Assembly (NCBI RefSeq): GCF_024700885.2
Contig: NZ_CP117016.1
DNA: 64,000 nucleotides
From: Escherichia coli
GTDB taxonomy: Bacteria; Pseudomonadota; Gammaproteobacteria; Enterobacterales; Enterobacteriaceae
Strand: one strand, 5' to 3'
Shown here: one piece after another, positions 26,303-56,288 of the stretch
Numbering within the stretch: the stretch's first letter is position 1
Layout: the number at the start of each line of letters is the position of its first letter
The notes under the pieces: model-generated
The model's input: only the letters and a program-made list of their open reading frames with translations
Database searches by the model: none
What the model was told of the DNA's origin: nothing
Made by a program: the position numbers and the translations under genes

Positions 26303-27592
26303 ATGTCGGATGACAAATTTGATGCCATTGTGGTCGGTGCGGGCGTTGCCGGTAGCGTTGCCGCACTGGTCATGGCGCGAGCCGGGCTGGATGTCCTGGT
26401 GATAGAACGCGGCGACAGTGCCGGATGTAAAAACATGACCGGCGGGCGTCTTTATGCCCACACACTTGAAGCGATTATTCCAGGCTTTGCAGCATCAGCG
26501 CCGGTAGAACGCAAGGTCACACGCGAGAAAATCTCCTTCTTAACCGAAGAAAGCGCCGTTACCCTCGACTTTCACCGCGAGCAACCAGATGTTCCGCAAC
26601 ACGCGTCTTATACCGTATTGCGTAATCGTCTGGACCCGTGGTTGATGGAACAAGCCGAGCAGGCGGGCGCGCAGTTTATCCCGGGCGTACGCGTCGATGC
26701 GCTGGTTCGTGAAGGAAACAAGGTCACTGGCGTGCAGGCCGGGGATGATGTTCTTGAAGCGAATGTGGTGATTCTGGCTGATGGCGTTAACTCGATGCTT
26801 GGCCGCTCGCTGGGAATGGTTCCCGCTTCCGATCCGCATCATTACGCTGTTGGTGTTAAAGAGGTTATTGGCCTCACACCAGAACAGATCAACGATCGCT
26901 TTAATATTACGGGCGAGGAAGGTGCCGCCTGGCTGTTTGCCGGTTCCCCTTCTGACGGCCTGATGGGTGGCGGATTCCTCTATACCAACAAGGATTCCGT
27001 ATCGTTGGGGCTGGTTTGTGGATTGGGTGATATCGCCCATGCGCAAAAAAGCGTGCCGCAAATGCTGGAAGATTTTAAACAACACCCCGCCATTCGCCCG
27101 CTGATCAGCGGCGGCAAACTGCTTGAATATTCCGCGCATATGGTGCCGGAAGGCGGTCTGGCAATGGTGCCGCAACTGGTTAACGAGGGCGTGATGATCG
27201 TTGGTGACGCCGCAGGCTTCTGCCTGAATTTGGGTTTTACAGTCCGCGGCATGGATTTAGCCATTGCATCGGCTCAGGCTGCCGCCACAACGGTGATCGC
27301 CGCCAAAGAACGCGCGGATTTCTCCGCCAGCAGTCTGGCGCAATACAAACGTGAGCTGGAACAAAGTTGTGTTATGCGCGATATGCAGCATTTCCGCAAG
27401 ATCCCGGCGCTGATGGAAAACCCGCGTCTGTTTAGCCAATACCCACGAATGGTCGCCGACATCATGAACGAGATGTTCACCATCGACGGCAAACCTAACC
27501 AACCGGTACGCAAAATGATCATGGGACACGCGAAGAAAATTGGACTGATCAACTTGCTGAAAGATGGCATTAAGGGAGCAACCGCGCTATGA
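26303..27592 (+). CDS. ydiS: FAD-dependent oxidoreductase (FixC/ETF-QO-like)
   Basis: 429-aa ORF with N-terminal dinucleotide-binding motif VVGAGVAGS. Confidence 0.85.
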   Translation: MSDDKFDAIVVGAGVAGSVAALVMARAGLDVLVIERGDSAGCKNMTGGRLYAHTLEAIIPGFAASAPVERKVTREKISFLTEESAVTLDFHREQPDVPQHASYTVLRNRLDPWLMEQAEQAGAQFIPGVRVDALVREGNKVTGVQAGDDVLEANVVILADGVNSMLGRSLGMVPASDPHHYAVGVKEVIGLTPEQINDRFNITGEEGAAWLFAGSPSDGLMGGGFLYTNKDSVSLGLVCGLGDIAHAQKSVPQMLEDFKQHPAIRPLISGGKLLEYSAHMVPEGGLAMVPQLVNEGVMIVGDAAGFCLNLGFTVRGMDLAIASAQAAATTVIAAKERADFSASSLAQYKRELEQSCVMRDMQHFRKIPALMENPRLFSQYPRMVADIMNEMFTIDGKPNQPVRKMIMGHAKKIGLINLLKDGIKGATAL

Positions 27593-44400: not shown

Positions 44401-44790
44401 ATGATTGACGCTCATGACTTCACAAGATGGGTGCGCACACAGGACACCCGTCTGGCTCCCATTCTTCGGGGATTATTTGATCTCTACATTCGTGGTCGTG
44501 ACAACAGAGCACGCACCACAAAACCGGAGAATGTGGATACCCTTTATTTCACAGTAGACGACTGCTACCGCGTGGACTTCACACCACACGGACTGGCGTT
44601 GCACTGCCTGACACCGCACGGCGAATCACTGCTGGCGTATTACGACTCCCCGGCCTCCGTATTTGCGGCAATGCTGGCGCATCGCACTGCTGGCGGGTGT
44701 GCCTCGCTGAGTGAATACACCGCTGAGTTTAACCGCCTTTCCGCCCTCTTCTCGCAGGAGTGGCAGCGCGTGACGGGATACCAGCCATGA
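44401..44790 (+). CDS. hypothetical phage early protein (P2 B-gene position)
   Basis: 129-aa ORF immediately upstream of and overlapping the A gene start. Confidence 0.5.
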   Translation: MIDAHDFTRWVRTQDTRLAPILRGLFDLYIRGRDNRARTTKPENVDTLYFTVDDCYRVDFTPHGLALHCLTPHGESLLAYYDSPASVFAAMLAHRTAGGCASLSEYTAEFNRLSALFSQEWQRVTGYQP

Positions 44791-47627
44791 GTGAGTTTGC
44801 ATGGAGCTGGAATGAACCACGGCCAGCCATTGATCCGGCCAGATTTACGGAGCGCAGGCAGGAAACTGAAACCGACCTGCAACGCGCCATCCGTTACTAC
44901 CTTGAGGCAGACAAAAAGGCCCAAGAAGAACAGGAAGCGAAAGAGGAAGCCTTTTTCGCACAATCCGCCATGGGTAAAAAACTCATGGCATCCCTTGAGG
45001 AAGCCGGACAGCGTGAAAAGCTGGCACAAAGCATCATCAGTAAGCGCCGGGCAACAGAACAAGACCCGGTGGCCCGTGCCTTTGCCACACTGAAGGTGCT
45101 TCCCGTTTATCTGCGAGAACCCCTGAGCCGCCACCTCTCTTTCCTGCGCAAAAAACAGGAAGCCGATCGCCGGAAAGGCAAAAAGAGCTGGCAGGCGGAA
45201 CGCTATGCACGCGGAACCCTGCGCAAAATATTCGAACGTCTGGATCGCACTGACGGACGCTGGCTGACACAGGGTTATCGCTCCATTGCCGGACGCGAAC
45301 GCCTGGACGATTTGCTTTACCTGCCGCAGCTCAACAAACACCAGGTACAGACACTGGCCACCATGACGGCAGCAATGTTCAGTAGCACATTCGAAAAACT
45401 CTGCGATGGCTTTGGCGCGACCGATGGTGAGCTGACCATGGATGTAACGCTGAAGGCGTATCAGATGCTGGCCCGCATGGCGTTACATCTGCACGCCATG
45501 CCTCCACATTATGACGCACTGACAACAGATAGAGATCGGAGGAACGAACCGGACACAGAGCTGCTGCCAGGCGCAATCCTTCGCCTGACCTGTGCTGAAT
45601 GGTGGAAACGCAAACTGTGGCTATTACGTTGCGAGTGGAGAGAAGAACAACTCCGCGCCGCCTGTCTGGTTTCCAGAAAAACATCGCCCTATCTGAGCCA
45701 GGACGCGTTAAGCGAGTTTCGCGCACAGCGCGAGAAAACACGCGATTTCCTGAAAGGTTTCATGCTGGAAAACGAAGACGGGTTCACGATTGATCTCGAG
45801 ACAGTGTATTACGCGGGAGTAAGTAACCCGGTTCACCGTAAGGCAGAAATGATGGCCACCATGAAGGGGCTGGAACTTCTGGCCGAGGCCCGTGGTGACA
45901 AAGCGGTGTTTCTGACTGTCACCTGCCCGTCAAAATACCACGCCACAACAGAGAACGGTCATCCGAATCCCAAATGGAACGGGGCCACCATGCGCGACTC
46001 CAGCGATTACCTGGTTAACACGTTTTTTGCGGCGGTCCGCAAAAAACTGAACCGCGACGGTCTGCGCTGGTATGGCATCCGCACGGTGGAGCCTCACCAT
46101 GACGGCACCGTGCACTGGCATATGATGGTCTTTGCTCATCCGGAAGAAATCGACAGCATCGTGGCCATCACCCGCGATATTGCCATTCAGGAAGACCGCC
46201 ACGAGCTGGGCAATGATATTACTCCGCGCTTTAAGGTGGAGTATGTCGACGGCTCAAAAGGCACACCAACCAGCTATATCGCGACCTACATCGGAAAAAA
46301 CCTGGACAGCCGCGCCGTGGATGGCATCGACCCGAAAACGGGCAAACCACGCGTTGACCACGAAACAGGTAAATCAATGGCCGAGAGCGTGGAGCGCGCC
46401 ATCGGCTGGGCGCGCCTTCACCGGGTCCGCCAGTTCCAGTTCTTTGGCATCCCCTCCCGTCAGGTGTGGCGTGAACTGCGCCGCCTTGCCAGCCAGATGG
46501 CACGCAACCCGGAAGGCCCGCAACGGCTGAAGGATGACGCAATGGATGCGGTACTCGCTGCCGCTGATGCCGGGTGTTTTGCCTCCTACATTGAAAAACA
46601 GGGTGGCGTACTTGTTCCACGCAAGGACTACCTGATTCGCACCGCCTACGACCTCGCAGATGAGCTGAACGATTACGGCGAACAGAGCGTACAGATTTAC
46701 GGGATCTGGTCACCACTCATCGGGGAATCCTCCCGTGTGTGCACGCACCCGGATAACTGGAAGCTGGTAAGACGTAAACCGGAAGCGGAAGACAGCACCC
46801 GCGAAAATGATTTTGACCTTCAGGGCGGCCCTGCCGCCCCTTGGACTCGTGGCAATAACTGTCCCCGTGTACAGGAAACAGACAACAACGGGACAGAACA
46901 GCCGGAAGAACGGCCAGCACCGTGGCCGCAGCTCCCTGACGGCGTTGAAGTGAACGAATGGATGCATTCACTGAAACGGCACGAACGCCGGGCGCTGATG
47001 CGTTCGCTTCGTGACAAACAGGCAAAAAACAGCAGCGATGAAATGCAGAACTGGACACAGAGCCGCAAACAGCCACAGCCTTTACCTGATAACCACGAGT
47101 TACTCGCTAAAGAATGGCGGGAGTCTGCTGAATCTCTCGGCCTGCATATTGGTGAACAGCAGATGCAGCACCTGTTACGGGGCGGCAGTCTGTACGTTGA
47201 CGGCAGCATCATTGCACCGCAGGGATTTGAAATTGTACGCAAACCGGATACCCGCCCGGACAGCCGAATCACGCAGCTCTGGCAACGCCTGAGCCGTAAT
47301 CACGGCGTAAGCAGCACGGAGATCCGCCATAACCCGGTCGCCAGCTATCTGGAACAGCTGGGGGCATCAGACCCTGAAGCCGCCGCACGCCTGGCATCCA
47401 CACTTCAGCAAGACCAGAACACCATGAAAACCCCCGTTACCGTGCTTTCTGACATGCTGCGCGCCATCCGTGACGCAGAGCACGCACAGAGAATCAGTGA
47501 AACCACTGAACGCGCCCACCGCAAAGCAGACCTGCTGCGGGGTAGCCTGACCAGTGGAAACAAAAAACAGACAGAAACGGGACTCACAAATCCCGTAAAT
47601 GAGCAAAAAACGTGCCGCGATATATGA
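44787..47627 (+). CDS. P2 gpA-type rolling-circle replication initiator with long C-terminal extension
   Basis: 946 aa from MSEFAWSWNEP; HUH-type motif VHWHMMVFAH and downstream Tyr-containing region (YIATYIGKN) typical of P2/186 A proteins; last 200 aa or so is low-complexity. Confidence 0.8.
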   Translation: MSEFAWSWNEPRPAIDPARFTERRQETETDLQRAIRYYLEADKKAQEEQEAKEEAFFAQSAMGKKLMASLEEAGQREKLAQSIISKRRATEQDPVARAFATLKVLPVYLREPLSRHLSFLRKKQEADRRKGKKSWQAERYARGTLRKIFERLDRTDGRWLTQGYRSIAGRERLDDLLYLPQLNKHQVQTLATMTAAMFSSTFEKLCDGFGATDGELTMDVTLKAYQMLARMALHLHAMPPHYDALTTDRDRRNEPDTELLPGAILRLTCAEWWKRKLWLLRCEWREEQLRAACLVSRKTSPYLSQDALSEFRAQREKTRDFLKGFMLENEDGFTIDLETVYYAGVSNPVHRKAEMMATMKGLELLAEARGDKAVFLTVTCPSKYHATTENGHPNPKWNGATMRDSSDYLVNTFFAAVRKKLNRDGLRWYGIRTVEPHHDGTVHWHMMVFAHPEEIDSIVAITRDIAIQEDRHELGNDITPRFKVEYVDGSKGTPTSYIATYIGKNLDSRAVDGIDPKTGKPRVDHETGKSMAESVERAIGWARLHRVRQFQFFGIPSRQVWRELRRLASQMARNPEGPQRLKDDAMDAVLAAADAGCFASYIEKQGGVLVPRKDYLIRTAYDLADELNDYGEQSVQIYGIWSPLIGESSRVCTHPDNWKLVRRKPEAEDSTRENDFDLQGGPAAPWTRGNNCPRVQETDNNGTEQPEERPAPWPQLPDGVEVNEWMHSLKRHERRALMRSLRDKQAKNSSDEMQNWTQSRKQPQPLPDNHELLAKEWRESAESLGLHIGEQQMQHLLRGGSLYVDGSIIAPQGFEIVRKPDTRPDSRITQLWQRLSRNHGVSSTEIRHNPVASYLEQLGASDPEAAARLASTLQQDQNTMKTPVTVLSDMLRAIRDAEHAQRISETTERAHRKADLLRGSLTSGNKKQTETGLTNPVNEQKTCRDI

Positions 47628-47703
47628 AGCACGCACAAAACAGGCAAAAGAGGGATTTCAGAATCCCGTAAACGGTTAATTAATCAACATAAGGAAAATC
47701 GAC

Positions 47704-48663
47704 ATGAAAATTTGTATCGACGACGGCTCCACCAACATCAAGCTGGCATGGACTGAGAACGGCGAACGCCGCAACGCCATCAGCCCGAACAGCTTCAAGT
47801 CGGAATGGTCTGCGCCGTTCGGTGGCACGCAGCCCGCGAACTACATGCTTGATGGCGTGCGCTATGGTTTTGATCCGGTCAGCGATCGCTTTATCCAGAC
47901 GACCGACACACAATACCAGTACAGCGATGTGAATGTCATTGCCATTCATCACGCGCTGGTCAAATCAGGCATCACGCCACAGGAGGTGGATGTGGTTGTC
48001 ACCCTGCCACTGAGCGAGTATTTCGACACAAACGCACAGCCGGACATGGCCAACATCAACCGCAAAAAAGCAAACGTTATGCGCCCGGTGGAATACCAGA
48101 ACGGCGAAGCATTCACTATCCGTAATGTACGGGTTATGCCTGAATCCATTCCGGCTGGCTTTAAAGCACTGGCTGACATGAGTCCGTTTGAATCCCTGCT
48201 GATTGTGGATTTAGGTGGAACCACGCTGGATGTGGCAAAGGTTCAGGGACAACTGGCAGGTATCAGCCAGGTGTTTTGCGATCCACACGTAGGCGTTTCC
48301 CTGATGGCCGATGCAGTACTGTCGGTGATGGCCACTAACGGTATGCGTACCAGTCACCACATCGCCAATACCATTATCGAACATCGCCATGATGAAGCCT
48401 GGCTGCGCCAGCACATCCACAATGACGCGCATTACGCCAGCCTGATGGCGGTTATTCGTGAAAAGGAAGAAACACTGAAACAACGCGTGATCCGCGCGCT
48501 GGCGGGTTTTTCGGGTTACGGGCGGGTGATGGTTGTCGGTGGCGGGGCGGAGATTGTGGCACCCGCTATCCGCGAAGCCTGCGGAGTTAATGCGACTTTC
48601 ATCGCGGACGGGGTGCCACAGTTTGCTCTGGTTAATGGGCTGTACGCAATGGACAAGGAGTAA
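47704..48663 (+). CDS. ParM/StbA-like actin-type ATPase
   Basis: 319 aa; actin-fold motifs IDDGSTNIKL (phosphate 1), DLGGTTLDV (phosphate 2), VVGGGAE (adenosine); collinear over full length with recalled plasmid R1 ParM (MLVFIDDGSTNIKLQW…YSDVNVVAVHHALL…VMPESIPAGY…DLGGTTLD…GGGAEL). Confidence 0.8.
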   Translation: MKICIDDGSTNIKLAWTENGERRNAISPNSFKSEWSAPFGGTQPANYMLDGVRYGFDPVSDRFIQTTDTQYQYSDVNVIAIHHALVKSGITPQEVDVVVTLPLSEYFDTNAQPDMANINRKKANVMRPVEYQNGEAFTIRNVRVMPESIPAGFKALADMSPFESLLIVDLGGTTLDVAKVQGQLAGISQVFCDPHVGVSLMADAVLSVMATNGMRTSHHIANTIIEHRHDEAWLRQHIHNDAHYASLMAVIREKEETLKQRVIRALAGFSGYGRVMVVGGGAEIVAPAIREACGVNATFIADGVPQFALVNGLYAMDKE

Positions 48664-48667
48664 ACCA

Positions 48668-48979
48668 ATGACGACACCAACCAGGCGGATAAGTTTCTAT
48701 CTGAAGCCTGCGGCCGTCAAGAACGAAAGCGAAGCATGCGCCTGGCTGGACAGCCTTACACCGGAAGCCCGCAAAAGCGGCCAACGCGTGGCTTTTCTGG
48801 CCGGGCTGGCACTTCTGAAAATGAATCCGGCAGAGGCTTACCGACTGGCTGCATGGGCTGACGATGAGGCGTTATCAGTGACACAAACCAGGACAGAACG
48901 CCCCCTGTCACAGCCAGTACCAACCGCACAGATAACCAGTCAGATGGCCGGAAATATCAGGGCGTTATTTCCTGAATAA
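48668..48979 (+). CDS. ParR-like DNA-binding adaptor
   Basis: 103 aa from MTTPTRRISFYLKPAA...; N-terminus resembles recalled R1 ParR (RRTIAFKLNPDV…LDSIP.GERS…AALTAGLALY); starts 5 nt after the parM-like stop. Confidence 0.65.
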   Translation: MTTPTRRISFYLKPAAVKNESEACAWLDSLTPEARKSGQRVAFLAGLALLKMNPAEAYRLAAWADDEALSVTQTRTERPLSQPVPTAQITSQMAGNIRALFPE

Positions 48980-49516: not shown

Positions 49517-50047
49517 TTATTCAGCATCGTCTCGTGCAGTCTGTGCATACGTCACAACAACGCCCAATGCATTAGTTTTCTTTTCAACATAGATAATATT
49601 GTCATATTCATAGTTACCATACGGATAGCAAATAAGAATATTTTTATGCAGATCGGGATCATCAACAAACGCTCCGGAACAGCTTCTTGAACTACCGGAT
49701 GTATACTCATACGGTGCAACATATGATGATGTTACTCCTGGTAAAAAATAAGTCACCATCATAAGAGGGATAATCAGGAATATCCCTGTAAGAATGCAAG
49801 AGCCAGCATAAACCTTCAGGTATTCCGACAGTCCTTTCCAGCCACTTTGCTTCACTACCCCCCTCTTCACCAGAAACAAGGAGAAGAAAAAGGACATACC
49901 CATACTACATAAGATGTAATAATTGGATATACGCGAATTAAGATATGTAATCCTGTAGATATCTGCCCTCCACCAGTAAAAGAGGAAAATAATCCCTAGC
50001 ACTGAAACAGTCATGCAAATCAAATAAGGATATGAATCTTTCTTCAT
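49517..50047 (-). CDS. hypothetical low-GC integral membrane protein (moron-like)
   Basis: 176 aa; three predicted TM segments (YLICMTVSVLGIIFLFYWW, YYILCSMGMSFFFSLFLV, CILTGIFLIIPLMMVTYFL) then a roughly 70-aa soluble C-terminal domain; markedly AT-rich compared with flanking phage DNA (by eye). Confidence 0.6.
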   Translation of the reverse strand: MKKDSYPYLICMTVSVLGIIFLFYWWRADIYRITYLNSRISNYYILCSMGMSFFFSLFLVKRGVVKQSGWKGLSEYLKVYAGSCILTGIFLIIPLMMVTYFLPGVTSSYVAPYEYTSGSSRSCSGAFVDDPDLHKNILICYPYGNYEYDNIIYVEKKTNALGVVVTYAQTARDDAE

Positions 50048-50095
50048 GTCTTGCGCTCATTAAAATTTCCCTGCTACGAACAAATTTACCATCCG

Positions 50096-50250
50096 TTTTT
50101 TGCGCAGAAAACAGCACGATGCACACTGCACGATAGTGCACAAATTTGCACAATTTTTTTGAACGACTTTTTACCCTTCCGGCCCGCATGGCGGCTGGAT
50201 CCGTCAAGGATCCGTGCGTGCACAAAAAAACGCGTTTTTTCTGCGCGCAG
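50096..50250. repeat. structured non-coding region: inverted repeats GCGCAGAAAA/TTTTCTGCGC, TGCACA iterons, GGATCCGT x2 at 11-bp spacing
   Basis: Seen directly; lies where the cos/packaging site of P2-like phages maps (between the accessory island and the portal gene). Confidence 0.5.
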
Positions 50251-50526
50251 GTGACGGGGGAACAGCCCGCGTTTCAGGGGGTAAATAGTATTCCCTGAGC
50301 GATGTCGCAGCGACATAACAGAATGGCCATATTTCTCACGCTGAGCGTGAAAAAGATGTGAGGGCTTTTGATTTGATGGGGTGAAAGGTAAGGCCGTCAA
50401 AATCGAACTGAGGCGGTGAGAACATGCAGTCAGCGCGGTGGGATTGCGTAAGAGTCTGACCGTCGATGATGGTAATAAACAGGAAAGCGTCGTGAAATTA
50501 TCTGATTGATACAGGAGCTGGAGAGT

Positions 50527-50551
50527 CGGGGCATAAATTTTTTATGCCCCG
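50527..50551. terminator. strong hairpin CGGGGCATAAA-TTT-TTTATGCCCCG downstream of the portal gene
   Basis: Perfect 11-bp inverted repeat immediately past the minus-strand Q stop; probable terminator of the Q-P transcript. Confidence 0.55.
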
Positions 50552-50577
50552 GCGAAGCAGCGGACAAGCGAAGCGCG

Positions 50578-51624
50578 TCAGGATGTGGGCTGGGTGTCTA
50601 ACAGTGCGTAAGGGTTAAAGCGAATCACCTCTTCGCCAAGCCAGTCATTGATGTGCTTCATGGCCTCCATGACGGGCATCAGCTCGTTAATTGCGTAAAC
50701 CCGCGCGGCCTTCTCCACATCACCAAACGCACTTTTTTCGCCTGGCATCGCCCCCATCAGTTGCGGCGGAACGCGGTGCGCAGCCAGCACATCATCACGG
50801 GATGCCACCTTAACATTCATGAACTCATCCTTTGCGGTGATCTGCTGGAACGGCAAAATTTGCACCCCCTCTTTGCCACCGTTGGGCGCATGAATGAGCA
50901 CGTTTTTAAACGCACCACCACCACGTGCACCCTGTAGCGTTTCTTTCAGGGAGTCCATGCTTTCGCGGTTTACCTGCGCTGCACCGATGTAGATGATGCA
51001 CCCGGCGTGGGATCCGTTGTCGTAATACAGTTTTCTGAACATGTCCGCCGAATGAGACAGGCTGGCCGAGAGTAATGCGCCGAGATATTCCGGCATGCCG
51101 TAGATTTCCTGGTTAATGTCAGGATTCATCAGGTGGCACACTTTGCCAGGGCGAAACTGAAACGCGTCCTTGCCATCCTGCACATACCACCATGATTCAA
51201 GATCGCTTCCGCGTCGCATGTATTTCGCCAGGGCGTGCCGTAATTTAAGCGGTTCGCCGAGCATATTGCTTCGAAGCTCAAGGAATGCGTTACCGAACAC
51301 AAACCAGTCCAGCGCCAGCGCCGAGAAATCCTGCCGGGAAAGCAACGGGTGCGGGATGTAGCAACCGAGTAATACATTGCGCTTAAAGTAAAGCGCAGAC
51401 TGATGCCAGGACGTTTGCCGGGCAGCTCTTGCCAGACCGTACCAGTCCACCGGGGTTTCATACCACCGCCCGTTATCAGCACAGTACATATTGTCCAGCA
51501 GGTCATGCCCGGTCAGGCGATAAGGACCATCAAATGTGAATGCACTGAGCGATGATTCTTTCCTGAGCGCATCAGCGAGATCAATGCGTGAACTCATGCG
51601 CACTTTTTTATTTTTTCTACTCAT
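50578..51624 (-). CDS. portal protein (P2 gpQ-like)
   Basis: 348 aa; position and orientation as P2 Q; stop overlaps the terminase start. Confidence 0.8.
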   Translation of the reverse strand: MSRKNKKVRMSSRIDLADALRKESSLSAFTFDGPYRLTGHDLLDNMYCADNGRWYETPVDWYGLARAARQTSWHQSALYFKRNVLLGCYIPHPLLSRQDFSALALDWFVFGNAFLELRSNMLGEPLKLRHALAKYMRRGSDLESWWYVQDGKDAFQFRPGKVCHLMNPDINQEIYGMPEYLGALLSASLSHSADMFRKLYYDNGSHAGCIIYIGAAQVNRESMDSLKETLQGARGGGAFKNVLIHAPNGGKEGVQILPFQQITAKDEFMNVKVASRDDVLAAHRVPPQLMGAMPGEKSAFGDVEKAARVYAINELMPVMEAMKHINDWLGEEVIRFNPYALLDTQPTS

Positions 51625-53375
51625 CAGAACTCCATAACCGTGAAACGCTCGTTTTCTCCTTCGCCGCCAATTGGTTCGTTAATGACAGCAAGCATGGTTG
51701 CCCACGCAAGGTCGCCGTGGCTGATCCCCCTCGCGCGGTCCGTTTCGTAAGTGATAAAGCCGCCCGGTGTTTTCACCTTACGCACGGCGTTAAAGGCCGC
51801 GACCAGCTCGCGTTCGGCGCGATCGTATTCCCACCGCCCGGCACGCATTATTTGCAGCATTTTCAGTACCAGCGACCGTTTTGATGACAGCGTGAAGGTG
51901 TACGGAATAGCGGCAGGGAAAAACCGTTTCACTATCTGATAAACAGCCTCCCCGTTCCCGCCCGTCACATCAATGCCGATGTGTTCCACGTTGTAGCGAC
52001 ACGTGAACTCTTCAATGACTCTGGCCTGTTCTTCAAACTCCAGCCCCTGAACGCGTCGCGTCTCCACCGTTCGAAAACGGCCACCAGGAACAGACGGAGG
52101 AACCACCACGGACACAGCGCCGCTGTCGCCGTTGCCACTGCTGCCGTTTGCGTCATACCCAATCCATACCGGACGATTCCCCATCGGGCGGGGAGCAAAA
52201 GGTTTCCAGTCTTTCCAGTCGTCGTATCCGTCAACACCGCAGCCAATCAGGATATTCAGGTTAAATGCCGATTCCCCTTCGCGGACAAACTCACACATAT
52301 AGAGATTGAGGAACTCGTCTTCGGTGTTTTCATCACGAATTTCGTCGATATCGGTGTGTTCCCAGCCGTGATTAACCACATCTTCCAGCGTGACAATTTG
52401 CCGCCACGTCCGGTCAGGGCAGATAAGCCCGTTATGCAGCGTTTTCCAGTCCACAGAAAAACGCTGGCGTTTATGCGTGGCCTTTTTCTCGTTCCAGCGG
52501 TCGCCGTTCCAGTAGGCGTATGCCTCGTGCGTTTCGGTGGATGGCGTGGAGAAGTAGGTGCGCCGCAGTCCGCTGAGGGTTGCCATAGCGCCAGCCACCT
52601 TGCGCAGTTCAGCAAAGCGACTGACCCAGAAAAATTCATCAAAATAAAAATTGCCCGTATAGGACTGTGCCGACGCAGCAGAAGTGCCGAGAAAATGCAG
52701 CTCTGCGCCGTTGGAGAGGATGATTTTATCGCCCCCTTTCAGCTCCACATCAACTTCAGCCGCGGCCTTCTGAATAATGCTTTTAAACTGGAACGCCTGA
52801 CGACGCGACGCAGACAAAAAAATCTGGTTACGCTGGTAAGGTTGCGCCACATCGTCACGCAGCGCCATCAGCAGCGCTTCCTGTGCAAAATACCAGGTCG
52901 CCCCAATCTGTCGGGATTTCAGGATCATCCTGTTACGTATCCCTGCTTCCCTGCAAAGGGTCAGGGAGTCAAACCAGCCCCGCTGATGCCACTCCAGCCT
53001 GCTGATGATTTTTTCCCGCAGTGCGGCAATCTGTTCCGGCGTGAAATGATTTTTAAGCTTTTTCGCCCGGCCTTTCTTTCCTGTGGCCGTCGCATCCGGC
53101 TGGCCATCATGCAGTTTTTTAAGCTGCCGGGTCAGCAGGTCTATTTCCTTGAAGTCACCACCTGTTTTATTCTGTTTTTCAGTGAGCTGGATGAGGCGCG
53201 CATCGATGGACTGCGTGACACGCTGCACGGGTGGCGTTTCATCCCACTGGTCGCGTTTTTTCCACGCATAAATCGTGTTCGGGTTTATTCCCATCAGACG
53301 TGATATTTCTGCGGGCGGATAACCCTGCCAGTAAAGTTGCCGCGCACGCTGGCGCACAAAAGCGTCCTGAATCAT
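51624..53375 (-). CDS. terminase large (ATPase) subunit (P2 gpP-like)
   Basis: 583 aa; P2 late-operon synteny, divergent from O-N-M-L. Confidence 0.8.
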   Translation of the reverse strand: MIQDAFVRQRARQLYWQGYPPAEISRLMGINPNTIYAWKKRDQWDETPPVQRVTQSIDARLIQLTEKQNKTGGDFKEIDLLTRQLKKLHDGQPDATATGKKGRAKKLKNHFTPEQIAALREKIISRLEWHQRGWFDSLTLCREAGIRNRMILKSRQIGATWYFAQEALLMALRDDVAQPYQRNQIFLSASRRQAFQFKSIIQKAAAEVDVELKGGDKIILSNGAELHFLGTSAASAQSYTGNFYFDEFFWVSRFAELRKVAGAMATLSGLRRTYFSTPSTETHEAYAYWNGDRWNEKKATHKRQRFSVDWKTLHNGLICPDRTWRQIVTLEDVVNHGWEHTDIDEIRDENTEDEFLNLYMCEFVREGESAFNLNILIGCGVDGYDDWKDWKPFAPRPMGNRPVWIGYDANGSSGNGDSGAVSVVVPPSVPGGRFRTVETRRVQGLEFEEQARVIEEFTCRYNVEHIGIDVTGGNGEAVYQIVKRFFPAAIPYTFTLSSKRSLVLKMLQIMRAGRWEYDRAERELVAAFNAVRKVKTPGGFITYETDRARGISHGDLAWATMLAVINEPIGGEGENERFTVMEF

Positions 53376-55487: not shown

Positions 55488-56288
55488 ATGATTACTCCTG
55501 CACAGCAACACTGGCAGAACGTGATGGCACAGCGCGCAGGCCGGGCGAATGAAGGCGTGGACCACGCCGCGCGTACCGCGCATGAAGAGGTGCTGTATCG
55601 TCTGCGTCTGGCACAGGCCCGACTTAAGGGCGTACAGGCCAGAAGCGCGAAAGCCGCCATCAAAAAAGAGTTGTTGCCGGACTTTTCCGGCTGGATTGAG
55701 GGAACGCTGGAGGCTGACGGCGGGCAGCAGGATGAAGTGATTGCCACGCTGATGGTGTGGGCAATTGACTGCGGCGATCTTCCGCTGGCGCTGCGTATTG
55801 GTGCGTATGTGGTCCGTCACAACCTCATCATGCCGGATAACTTTGGCCGTACTGCTGCCACGGTACTGACCGAAGAAATCTGCAACCCGGTACTGACGCA
55901 GGCCGGGACGGATGCCGACGCGGATTTGTCCGCCTTTATCGAACCACTGGACACACTTTGGGAAATTGTCGCCAACCAGGATATGCCGGACGAAGTGCGC
56001 GCCAAATTATGCAAGGCGTGCGCCTTTGCCCGCCGTAGCCTGAGCGATGCGGACAGCATGGCCTCATCACTGAAGCTGCTGCGCGAAGCGATGCACCTGA
56101 ACCCGAACGCAGGTGTGAAACGCGAGATTGCAACCCTTTCCCGCGCTCTGAAAAAAGCCGATTCCGCAGCCGCACCAGAAGATGCCAGCACACCGCAGGC
56201 GCAGAACGAAAGCAGCAAAAGTAAAAAGACAACGCGGAAGCCTGCAACACGAAAAACCACCGCGACGCAGAAGGCGAAGCGCGGTTAA
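55488..56288 (+). CDS. terminase small subunit (P2 gpM-like)
   Basis: 266 aa; shares KKELLP and MPDEVRAKL with recalled P2 gpM; basic C-terminal tail. Confidence 0.8.
   Translation: MITPAQQHWQNVMAQRAGRANEGVDHAARTAHEEVLYRLRLAQARLKGVQARSAKAAIKKELLPDFSGWIEGTLEADGGQQDEVIATLMVWAIDCGDLPLALRIGAYVVRHNLIMPDNFGRTAATVLTEEICNPVLTQAGTDADADLSAFIEPLDTLWEIVANQDMPDEVRAKLCKACAFARRSLSDADSMASSLKLLREAMHLNPNAGVKREIATLSRALKKADSAAAPEDASTPQAQNESSKSKKTTRKPATRKTTATQKAKRG

Follow-up and report, generated by a model that had tools for sequence, protein, structure and literature searches.

The window analysed here, 64,000 nucleotides of Escherichia coli DNA, carries a P88-like prophage (Xuanwuvirus, P2 family) in which replication gene A, a cargo region, a 530-bp gap, the portal gene and the large-terminase gene follow one another in that order; the gene order given in Table 1 is that of the RefSeq annotation of an identical locus. 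The gap is bordered by a variable cargo island on one side and by the portal gene on the other. It is found at 100% identity in E. coli E-1246 and is present in 1132 of 5426 complete E. coli genomes, and its part from 50124 to 50577 is 92–96% identical to phage P88, Citrobacter phage phiSM and other Xuanwuvirus members. PGAP annotates a frameshifted pseudogene alone in the gap, extending into it as far as 50092, and the 530-bp region is, as far as can be told, non-coding.

Table 1. Genes and sequence features around the cargo–portal gap of the window prophage
Feature	Position	Strand	Remark
Replication endonuclease (A)	44760-47627
ParM	47704-48663
ParR	48668-48979
ead/Ea22-like pseudogene	between ParR and the membrane-protein pseudogene
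Frameshifted membrane-protein pseudogene	49517-50092	-	cargo (moron)
5′ flank of the moron membrane-protein pseudogene	50048..50125	-	outside cos
Predicted cos module, 161 bp	50126..50286	+	unit common to the window and the satellite-like island
Three helically phased TGCAC boxes, unit TGCACAAnnn	50127..50151	+	starts 50127, 50137 and 50147, 10-bp spacing
Conserved T-tract AATTTTTTTGAA	50152..50165	+	at least 90% conserved, ungapped consensus of 188 distinct segments
Dyad CCGGCC...GGCTGG	50179-50198		within 50179..50213
Dyad GGATCC-GTCAA-GGATCC	50197-50213		formed by two copies of GGATCCGT
Proximal TGCAC box	50219..50223	+	-31 from the predicted cut
Predicted cohesive-end core GGTGACGGGGGAACAGCCC	50250..50268	+	13/19 match to the P2 end
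CAGGGGGTAAAT, right edge of the predicted cos module	50275..50286	+	homology with the satellite stops here
G-rich arm from cos to portal	50287..50526	+	conserved in close P88-like relatives only
Perfect 11-bp-stem hairpin	50527-50537 / 50541-50551		3-nt loop
Portal	50578-51624	-
Large terminase gpP	51624-53375	-
Small terminase gpM	55488-56288	+	scaffold and capsid genes also on +

P2 and 186 have their annotated cohesive ends in the equivalent interval, 186–195 bp from the portal stop and with a terminator between the two, and the gpA-gpQ interval is a described hotspot next to cos (PMC9122126). The gap in the window is placed likewise, with the A-proximal cargo hotspot on one side and the portal gene's 3′ end on the other. 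The initial annotation had put a putative cos site here, and the proposal is supported by the position itself, by the core found in relatives, by the geometry of short sequence boxes and by the sharing of the site with a satellite. When the region was aligned locally with the cos junctions of P2 and 186, as that annotation recommended, only the portal 3′ end matched and nothing was found in the non-coding part, and we therefore used relatives to place the core; the proposed link between the window and the P2/186 cos rests on these intermediates and on geometry.

A compact unit within the gap is delimited by its alignments to other loci. Local alignments of the window with two of these (L062 and L036) start at 50126 and end at 50286, and in both, as in L122 and L218, sharing with the window is limited to that interval; the three IMG/VR loci that contain the core and no portal align with 50126–50286 and nowhere else. 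The four named loci represent one integrated, satellite-like island of 12.6 kb, which has this block, and nothing more, in common with the window. The island adjoins hpt in E. coli 600468 (L218, NZ_CP025849, ~553800–566400) and was found in 53 of the 5426 complete E. coli genomes. It encodes two integrases, an AlpA-type regulator, an Icd-like protein and an 889-aa toprim primase, and further contains the cos module, an Ogr/Delta-like zinc-finger protein, MazEF and a P2-family major capsid protein that is 35% identical to that of the window phage. The island has no portal, terminase or tail genes, BLAST detected no P4 sid, psu, delta or alpha in it, and it looks like a satellite of P88-like phages. 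A signal carried by satellites without packaging genes is what is seen with P4 and P2, and because this packaging-defective island shares the 161-bp block alone with the phage, the block would be the packaging signal, which is our strongest argument. On the combined sequence evidence, we consider it very likely that 50126–50286 is the cos site, for both packaging recognition and cleavage, of this P88-like, P2-family prophage.

The module architecture recurs in Enterobacter phage phiT5282H and in Klebsiella phages. PhiT5282H belongs to a different phage genus, has a portal that is 69% identical and shares only 50127–50271 with the window; GCGCAGGTGACGGGGGAACAGCCC is identical in the two, and its flanks diverge. 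Klebsiella relatives have GGCGAGGCGGGGGAGCAAG at the place homologous to the window core, and the first 12 bases of this sequence are those of the P2 cohesive end, GGCGAGGCGGGGAAAGCAC, so that the Klebsiella core forms a putative bridge between the window core and the P2 end. Two of the Klebsiella phages, with portals as distant as that of phiT5282H and with the same layout, read GCGCGCA-GGCGAGGCGGGGGAGCAAG-CGCGCGC, and the right edge in the Klebsiella relatives is GGGGGTAGGG. The window core is related to GGCGAGGCGGGGAAAGCAC and stands between GC-rich nick contexts, as is found in P2-family cos sites. The cohesive ends of two other P2-family phages, RSA1 (GGTGAGGCGGGG; PMC5694545) and Smp131 (GGCGTGGCGGGG; PMC3931495), which were either deduced or measured, begin in like manner, and the same two papers cite Ziermann and Calendar (1990) for a '55-bp core' and 19-nt 5′ cohesive ends of the P2-family cos.

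We predict a top-strand cut between 50249 and 50250, in the context GCGCGCA^G, which is the bottom-strand context of P2. The position of the bottom-strand cut is uncertain, and we place it 14–19 nt downstream of the top-strand cut (50263–50268): symmetry of the nick contexts, with the best match to the P2 context at CGCGGGCT^G, suggests a 14-nt overhang, and homology with the Klebsiella core suggests one of 17–19 nt.

The core is invariant in 80 of 80 relatives selected by their portal, a set made up of very close relatives, the portal search having returned matches of at least 99% identity only. In IMG/VR, 120 loci were found to contain the core, and in ~110 of these it lies 211–960 bp upstream of the stop codon of a portal gene whose product is 65–99% identical; in the 120 + 120 loci fetched with the core as search pattern, its invariance is by construction. 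We found no phage record that starts at the core, and no metagenome contig that ends at it among the matches listed. Ends near the core in IMG/VR loci proved to be storage cuts or isolate contig breaks. The literature searched yielded no description of the cos of P88 or phiSM.

The record of phage P884B11 (L007, NC_049391) starts 78 nt upstream of the core, at an apparently arbitrary point. Its positions 78–100 read GGTGACGGGGGGACAGG-TTTCAGG, with the six nucleotides CCCGCG absent at the 3′ edge of the predicted cohesive end. This deletion occurs in 0 of 5426 E. coli genomes; it may be genuine, or it may reflect faulty assembly of the genome ends.

Short boxes are the second conserved element of the module. 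Measured from the predicted top-strand cut (end at 50250), the window boxes stand at −123/−113/−103/−31, and we find the TGCAT boxes in P2, 186 and P4 at −123(4)/−111/−101/−29 from the annotated ends, so that no window box is displaced by more than 2 nt from its counterpart; the window thereby has the box architecture, at ~−123/−111/−101/−29, that we derive here as a mark of P2-family cos sites. Among 188 distinct segments, which were fetched via the core, 73–76% have boxes exactly at −123/−113/−103/−31, with the proximal box at −31 in 76%. A triplet of TGCAY boxes in 9–12-bp phase is found at a single place in the 64 kb, position 50127, compared with a mean of 0.01 such triplets in shuffled sequences, 3 of 300 of which reach one. 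Between P2 and P4, the boxes keep an ungapped register (17/31) across a dissimilar spacer (10/59), and the core beside that spacer is conserved (29/36 and 19/19). We take the boxes to be putative terminase recognition sites. By eye, they contain no Ogr-type TGT-N12-ACA site, and we found no description of phased TGCAY boxes in the searchable literature, a search that did not extend to Ziermann and Calendar (1990).

The initial annotation had listed four TGCACA iterons in the region. TGCAC does occur on the + strand at 50120, 50127, 50137 and 50147, and three of these copies fall in the cos module; the second reads TGCACG, and a fifth TGCAC, at 50219, was missing from the list. Relatives are mutually unrelated left of the first box, with complete divergence left of 50126, and therefore cargo abuts the first box and the TGCACA at 50120 lies outside the unit.

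Short direct repeats in helical phase near a parMR pair are also characteristic of the parC of ParMRC (type II) systems, and with ParM and ParR 1.1 kb upstream of the site, the repeats could be the centromere of that pair, a role that the initial annotation had entertained. The parC of ParMRC systems lies upstream of parM, however, whereas the window repeats lie downstream of the pair, with two pseudogenes between them and parR, and they do not co-occur with it: among the 89 relatives in which the replication gene and the core are both in view, 41 are without ParM and keep the boxes. Equivalent boxes are carried by the satellite, P2, 186 and P4, none of which has ParMR, and a better parC candidate is found directly upstream of parM. 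A centromere at the boxes is thus very improbable.

That candidate is a 39-nt imperfect direct repeat (47561–47599 and 47634–47672; 74% identical, 73 bp apart) immediately upstream of parM. Both copies include a small palindrome and have AATCCCGTAAA as their last bases; the first copy lies inside the 3′ end of the replication gene. The pair is a candidate parC or operator. The ParM/ParR genes themselves (47704–48979), situated in an integrating P2-family prophage, are found in 48 of the 89 relatives and are absent from the other 41.

Between the phased boxes and the core, the module contains a T-tract, which is possibly an intrinsic bend or a host-factor site, and two dyads. The second dyad arises from the two GGATCCGT repeats that had been listed as lying one helical turn apart; these are present, at 50197–50204 and 50208–50215 and with 11-nt spacing, but they form a palindrome and are at chance level, the window containing 24 exact 8-mer direct repeats with a close second copy. 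At the position of the dyad, other lineages read CCGCC-CTGT-GGCGG and the satellite CGCCC-GGA-GGGCG. A few G:C to A:T double changes keep the dyad pairing across lineages, but the lineages have no fold in common for this region according to RNAalifold. After the proximal box comes the palindrome AAAAAACG/CGTTTTTT at 50225–50240; in P2, 186 and P4, the TGCAT at −29 is followed by TAAAACCG. The perfect 16-bp palindrome AAAAAACGCGTTTTTT (50225–50240), which separates the proximal box from the predicted cut, occurs in the P88 lineage only, and with its flanks it makes up a 15-nt imperfect inverted repeat (50215–50229 / 50235–50249) that abuts the nick.

Boxes and dyads of this kind could instead be transcription signals, be it an operator, promoter or terminator, that serve the cargo genes or the end of the portal operon. 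A T-run comes after GTGCACAAATTTGCAC, and this was called terminator-like, the only such call of the scan and one that falls inside the boxes; in P4, two boxes are the arms of a hairpin after psu, and the P2 boxes are found just upstream of the old promoter. Against this, the neighbouring genes differ from lineage to lineage and the box-core distance is constant, the boxes of the satellite adjoin genes unrelated to those of the phage, and the promoter and terminator scan found no sigma-70-like promoter in the region. We consider a transcriptional function improbable, and retain terminase recognition as the preferred reading of the boxes.

On the cargo side of the module, the flank 50048–50125 is ~76% identical to the sequence upstream of the membrane-protein gene in phages 434, mEp332 and 2B8. 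It holds GCGCAGAAAA (50102–50111) and the non-conserved TGCACA (50120–50125), and GCGCAGAAAA is complementary at 10 of 10 positions to TTTTCTGCGC (50237–50246), 125 nt away. From this perfect inverted repeat the initial annotation had drawn a 135-bp element, which we find to be a chance juxtaposition. About nine perfect 10-nt inverted repeats within 150 nt are expected per 64 kb (estimated as 64000 × 150 / 4^10). The left arm is part of the moron flank and is absent from P884B11, other P88-like phages and most relatives, and the right arm is part of the flank of the cos core; the two do not move together as the arms of a MITE-like element would. Open frames also exist in the region (50051–50254 and 50086–50400), which had been named as possible conserved genes, and P88 annotates two tiny ORFs here. 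Both frames cross the two homology breakpoints (50126 and 50286) and contain 1-nt changes in G-, A- and T-runs among relatives, however, and the P88 ORFs are closed in the window (ATG GGG TGA at 50381); long frames on the − strand follow from composition, that strand being C-rich and having few stop codons. It is extremely unlikely that the region is a 135-bp non-autonomous mobile element with 10-bp inverted repeats or a set of conserved small genes.

On the portal side, the arm contains GAGGCGG (50410–50416) and small hairpins (50302–50316; 50328–50358). Its G>C skew, 0.34–0.38 at 50269–50526, is the strongest of the 64-kb window, and that of the equivalent arm of P2 and 186 is 0.40. The satellite lacks the arm, and so do the Enterobacter and Klebsiella relatives in which the cos module is retained; as judged from these comparisons the G-rich arm and hairpin (50287–50577) lie outside the recognition unit.

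GAGGCGG had been likened to the P2/186 cohesive-end sequence. The motif is present and the 7-mer is indeed part of the P2 end, and a cohesive end at or around it would lie ~170 bp from the portal stop, which resembles the 186 bp of P2. Beyond the 7-mer, however, 5 of 9 bases match P2 (by eye), and the 7-mer is at chance frequency, with 2 occurrences in the window (both strands) against ~8 expected. It also lies ~160 bases from the predicted cut, in the arm that is missing where the module is kept, and among relatives 211 to 960 bp separate cos from the portal stop, so that distance is no criterion. A cohesive end at GAGGCGG is highly unlikely, and the predicted end remains at the core.

The perfect 11-bp-stem hairpin described at the end of the region is confirmed at 50527–50551 and is more than chance (−27.5 kcal/mol for the fold, z = −3.5); together with the phased TGCAC boxes, it is the only one of the motifs listed earlier to exceed chance. 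It has the stem of an intrinsic terminator and lacks the T-run, which is missing after the hairpin on either strand; the terminator scan did not call it, and a search of the region against Rfam gave a sub-threshold gyrA match to the hairpin alone. Where relatives have an additional 174-aa gene, the hairpin remains next to the cos arm, away from the portal stop. RNA in the portal sense would be C-rich and G-poor downstream of the hairpin, which lacks a U-run, and our guess is that this would suit Rho-dependent termination before cos. The 174-aa gene occurs in L024 and ~20 other loci, in which 960 bp separate the core from the portal stop; it lies on the + strand between the hairpin and the portal stop and has its own terminator, and it marks a second small site for cargo, this one on the side of cos that faces the portal.

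The large terminase gpP starts with a gpP-type helix-turn-helix (Terminase_5 / HTH_23) at its N terminus and also has an ATPase domain and an RNaseH-like nuclease domain, and gpM is a PF05944 small terminase; the divergence of gpM and gpP from the P2 proteins (37% and 44% identity) fits the diverged cos and the replacement of TGCAT by TGCAC. Presumably it is gpM or gpP that reads the boxes. In the mechanism that we propose, a terminase composed of gpM as the small subunit and gpP as the large subunit would recognize the three TGCAC boxes on one face of the helix (50127–50151) and the proximal box (50219), and the T-tract and dyads would let the DNA bend so that the nuclease is placed on the core. 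The nuclease would then nick the top strand at GCGCGCA^GGTGAC (between 50249 and 50250) and the bottom strand 14–19 nt downstream, leaving 5′ cohesive ends.

The site resembles the cos of P2, 186 and P4 in its place between the cargo hotspot and the portal stop, in a G-rich core that starts GG(C/T)GA and is preceded by GCG(C/G)GC(A/G), in a proximal TGCAY ~30 nt and three phased TGCAY ~100–125 nt upstream, in a G-rich arm towards the portal and in the sharing of the module with a satellite. It differs from them in having TGCAC rather than TGCAT boxes, in a core that is identical to GGCGAGGCGGGGAAAGCAC at only 13 of 19 positions and an overhang that may be shorter, in a dyad that lies between the phased boxes and the proximal box and not against the cut, in the absence of a T-run terminator after the portal gene, and in terminase proteins that are 37–44% identical; it also lies ~330 bp from the portal stop, compared with 186 bp in P2. 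The cos of lambda (cosN, the R-sites of cosB and the I1 IHF site) likewise combines a nick site with small repeated boxes and a bend on one side, and serves us as a working analogy for the way the module may function; the two have no sequence relationship, and the lambda boxes lie on the terminase-gene side of the nick, whereas those of the window lie on the far (cargo) side.

A cos of this kind is an ordinary and expected feature of a P2-family prophage, and yet none is annotated in any P88-like prophage record that we examined, although such prophages occur in about one fifth of complete E. coli genomes. Its correct placement fixes the ends of the virion genome and the boundary of the cargo/defence hotspot, and the 161-bp unit should be enough for transduction by P88-like phages. 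The box geometry held in common with P2, 186 and P4 offers a model, open to testing, for DNA recognition by the terminases of the P2 family, and the module's presence in a satellite suggests that P2 and P4 are not the only helper-satellite pair of this sort. More speculatively, the terminases of the entire P2 family could use phased TGCAY boxes (three at ~−100 to −125, one at ~−30) as their recognition code, with the TGCAC or TGCAT type setting which satellite a given helper can package, and with the type found in the window exploited by a distinct satellite family that has its own P2-family capsid gene and Ogr/Delta-like activator; we put this forward as a tentative proposal, somewhat short of an even chance.

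A complete P88-type cos module with its arm is found at ~7261 of L075 (IMGVR_UViG_3300014970_000032), with no portal within 7 kb and with tail-tube-like ORFs nearby; this locus is probably what is left of a rearranged prophage. The moron and its flank in phages 434, mEp332 and 2B8 are followed by decayed boxes and a GGGGTAAATAG cos edge. The example from phage 434 (L137, OL657226, ~27195–27321, corresponding to window 50053–50184) has the moron gene and flank, then boxes decayed to TGCAC, TACAC and TGCGT, and then TTTAAGGGGTAAATAGCATTTCC. By its sequence, this type of remnant is the relic of a P88-type cos from which the core has been deleted, left by exchange between P2-family and lambdoid phages.
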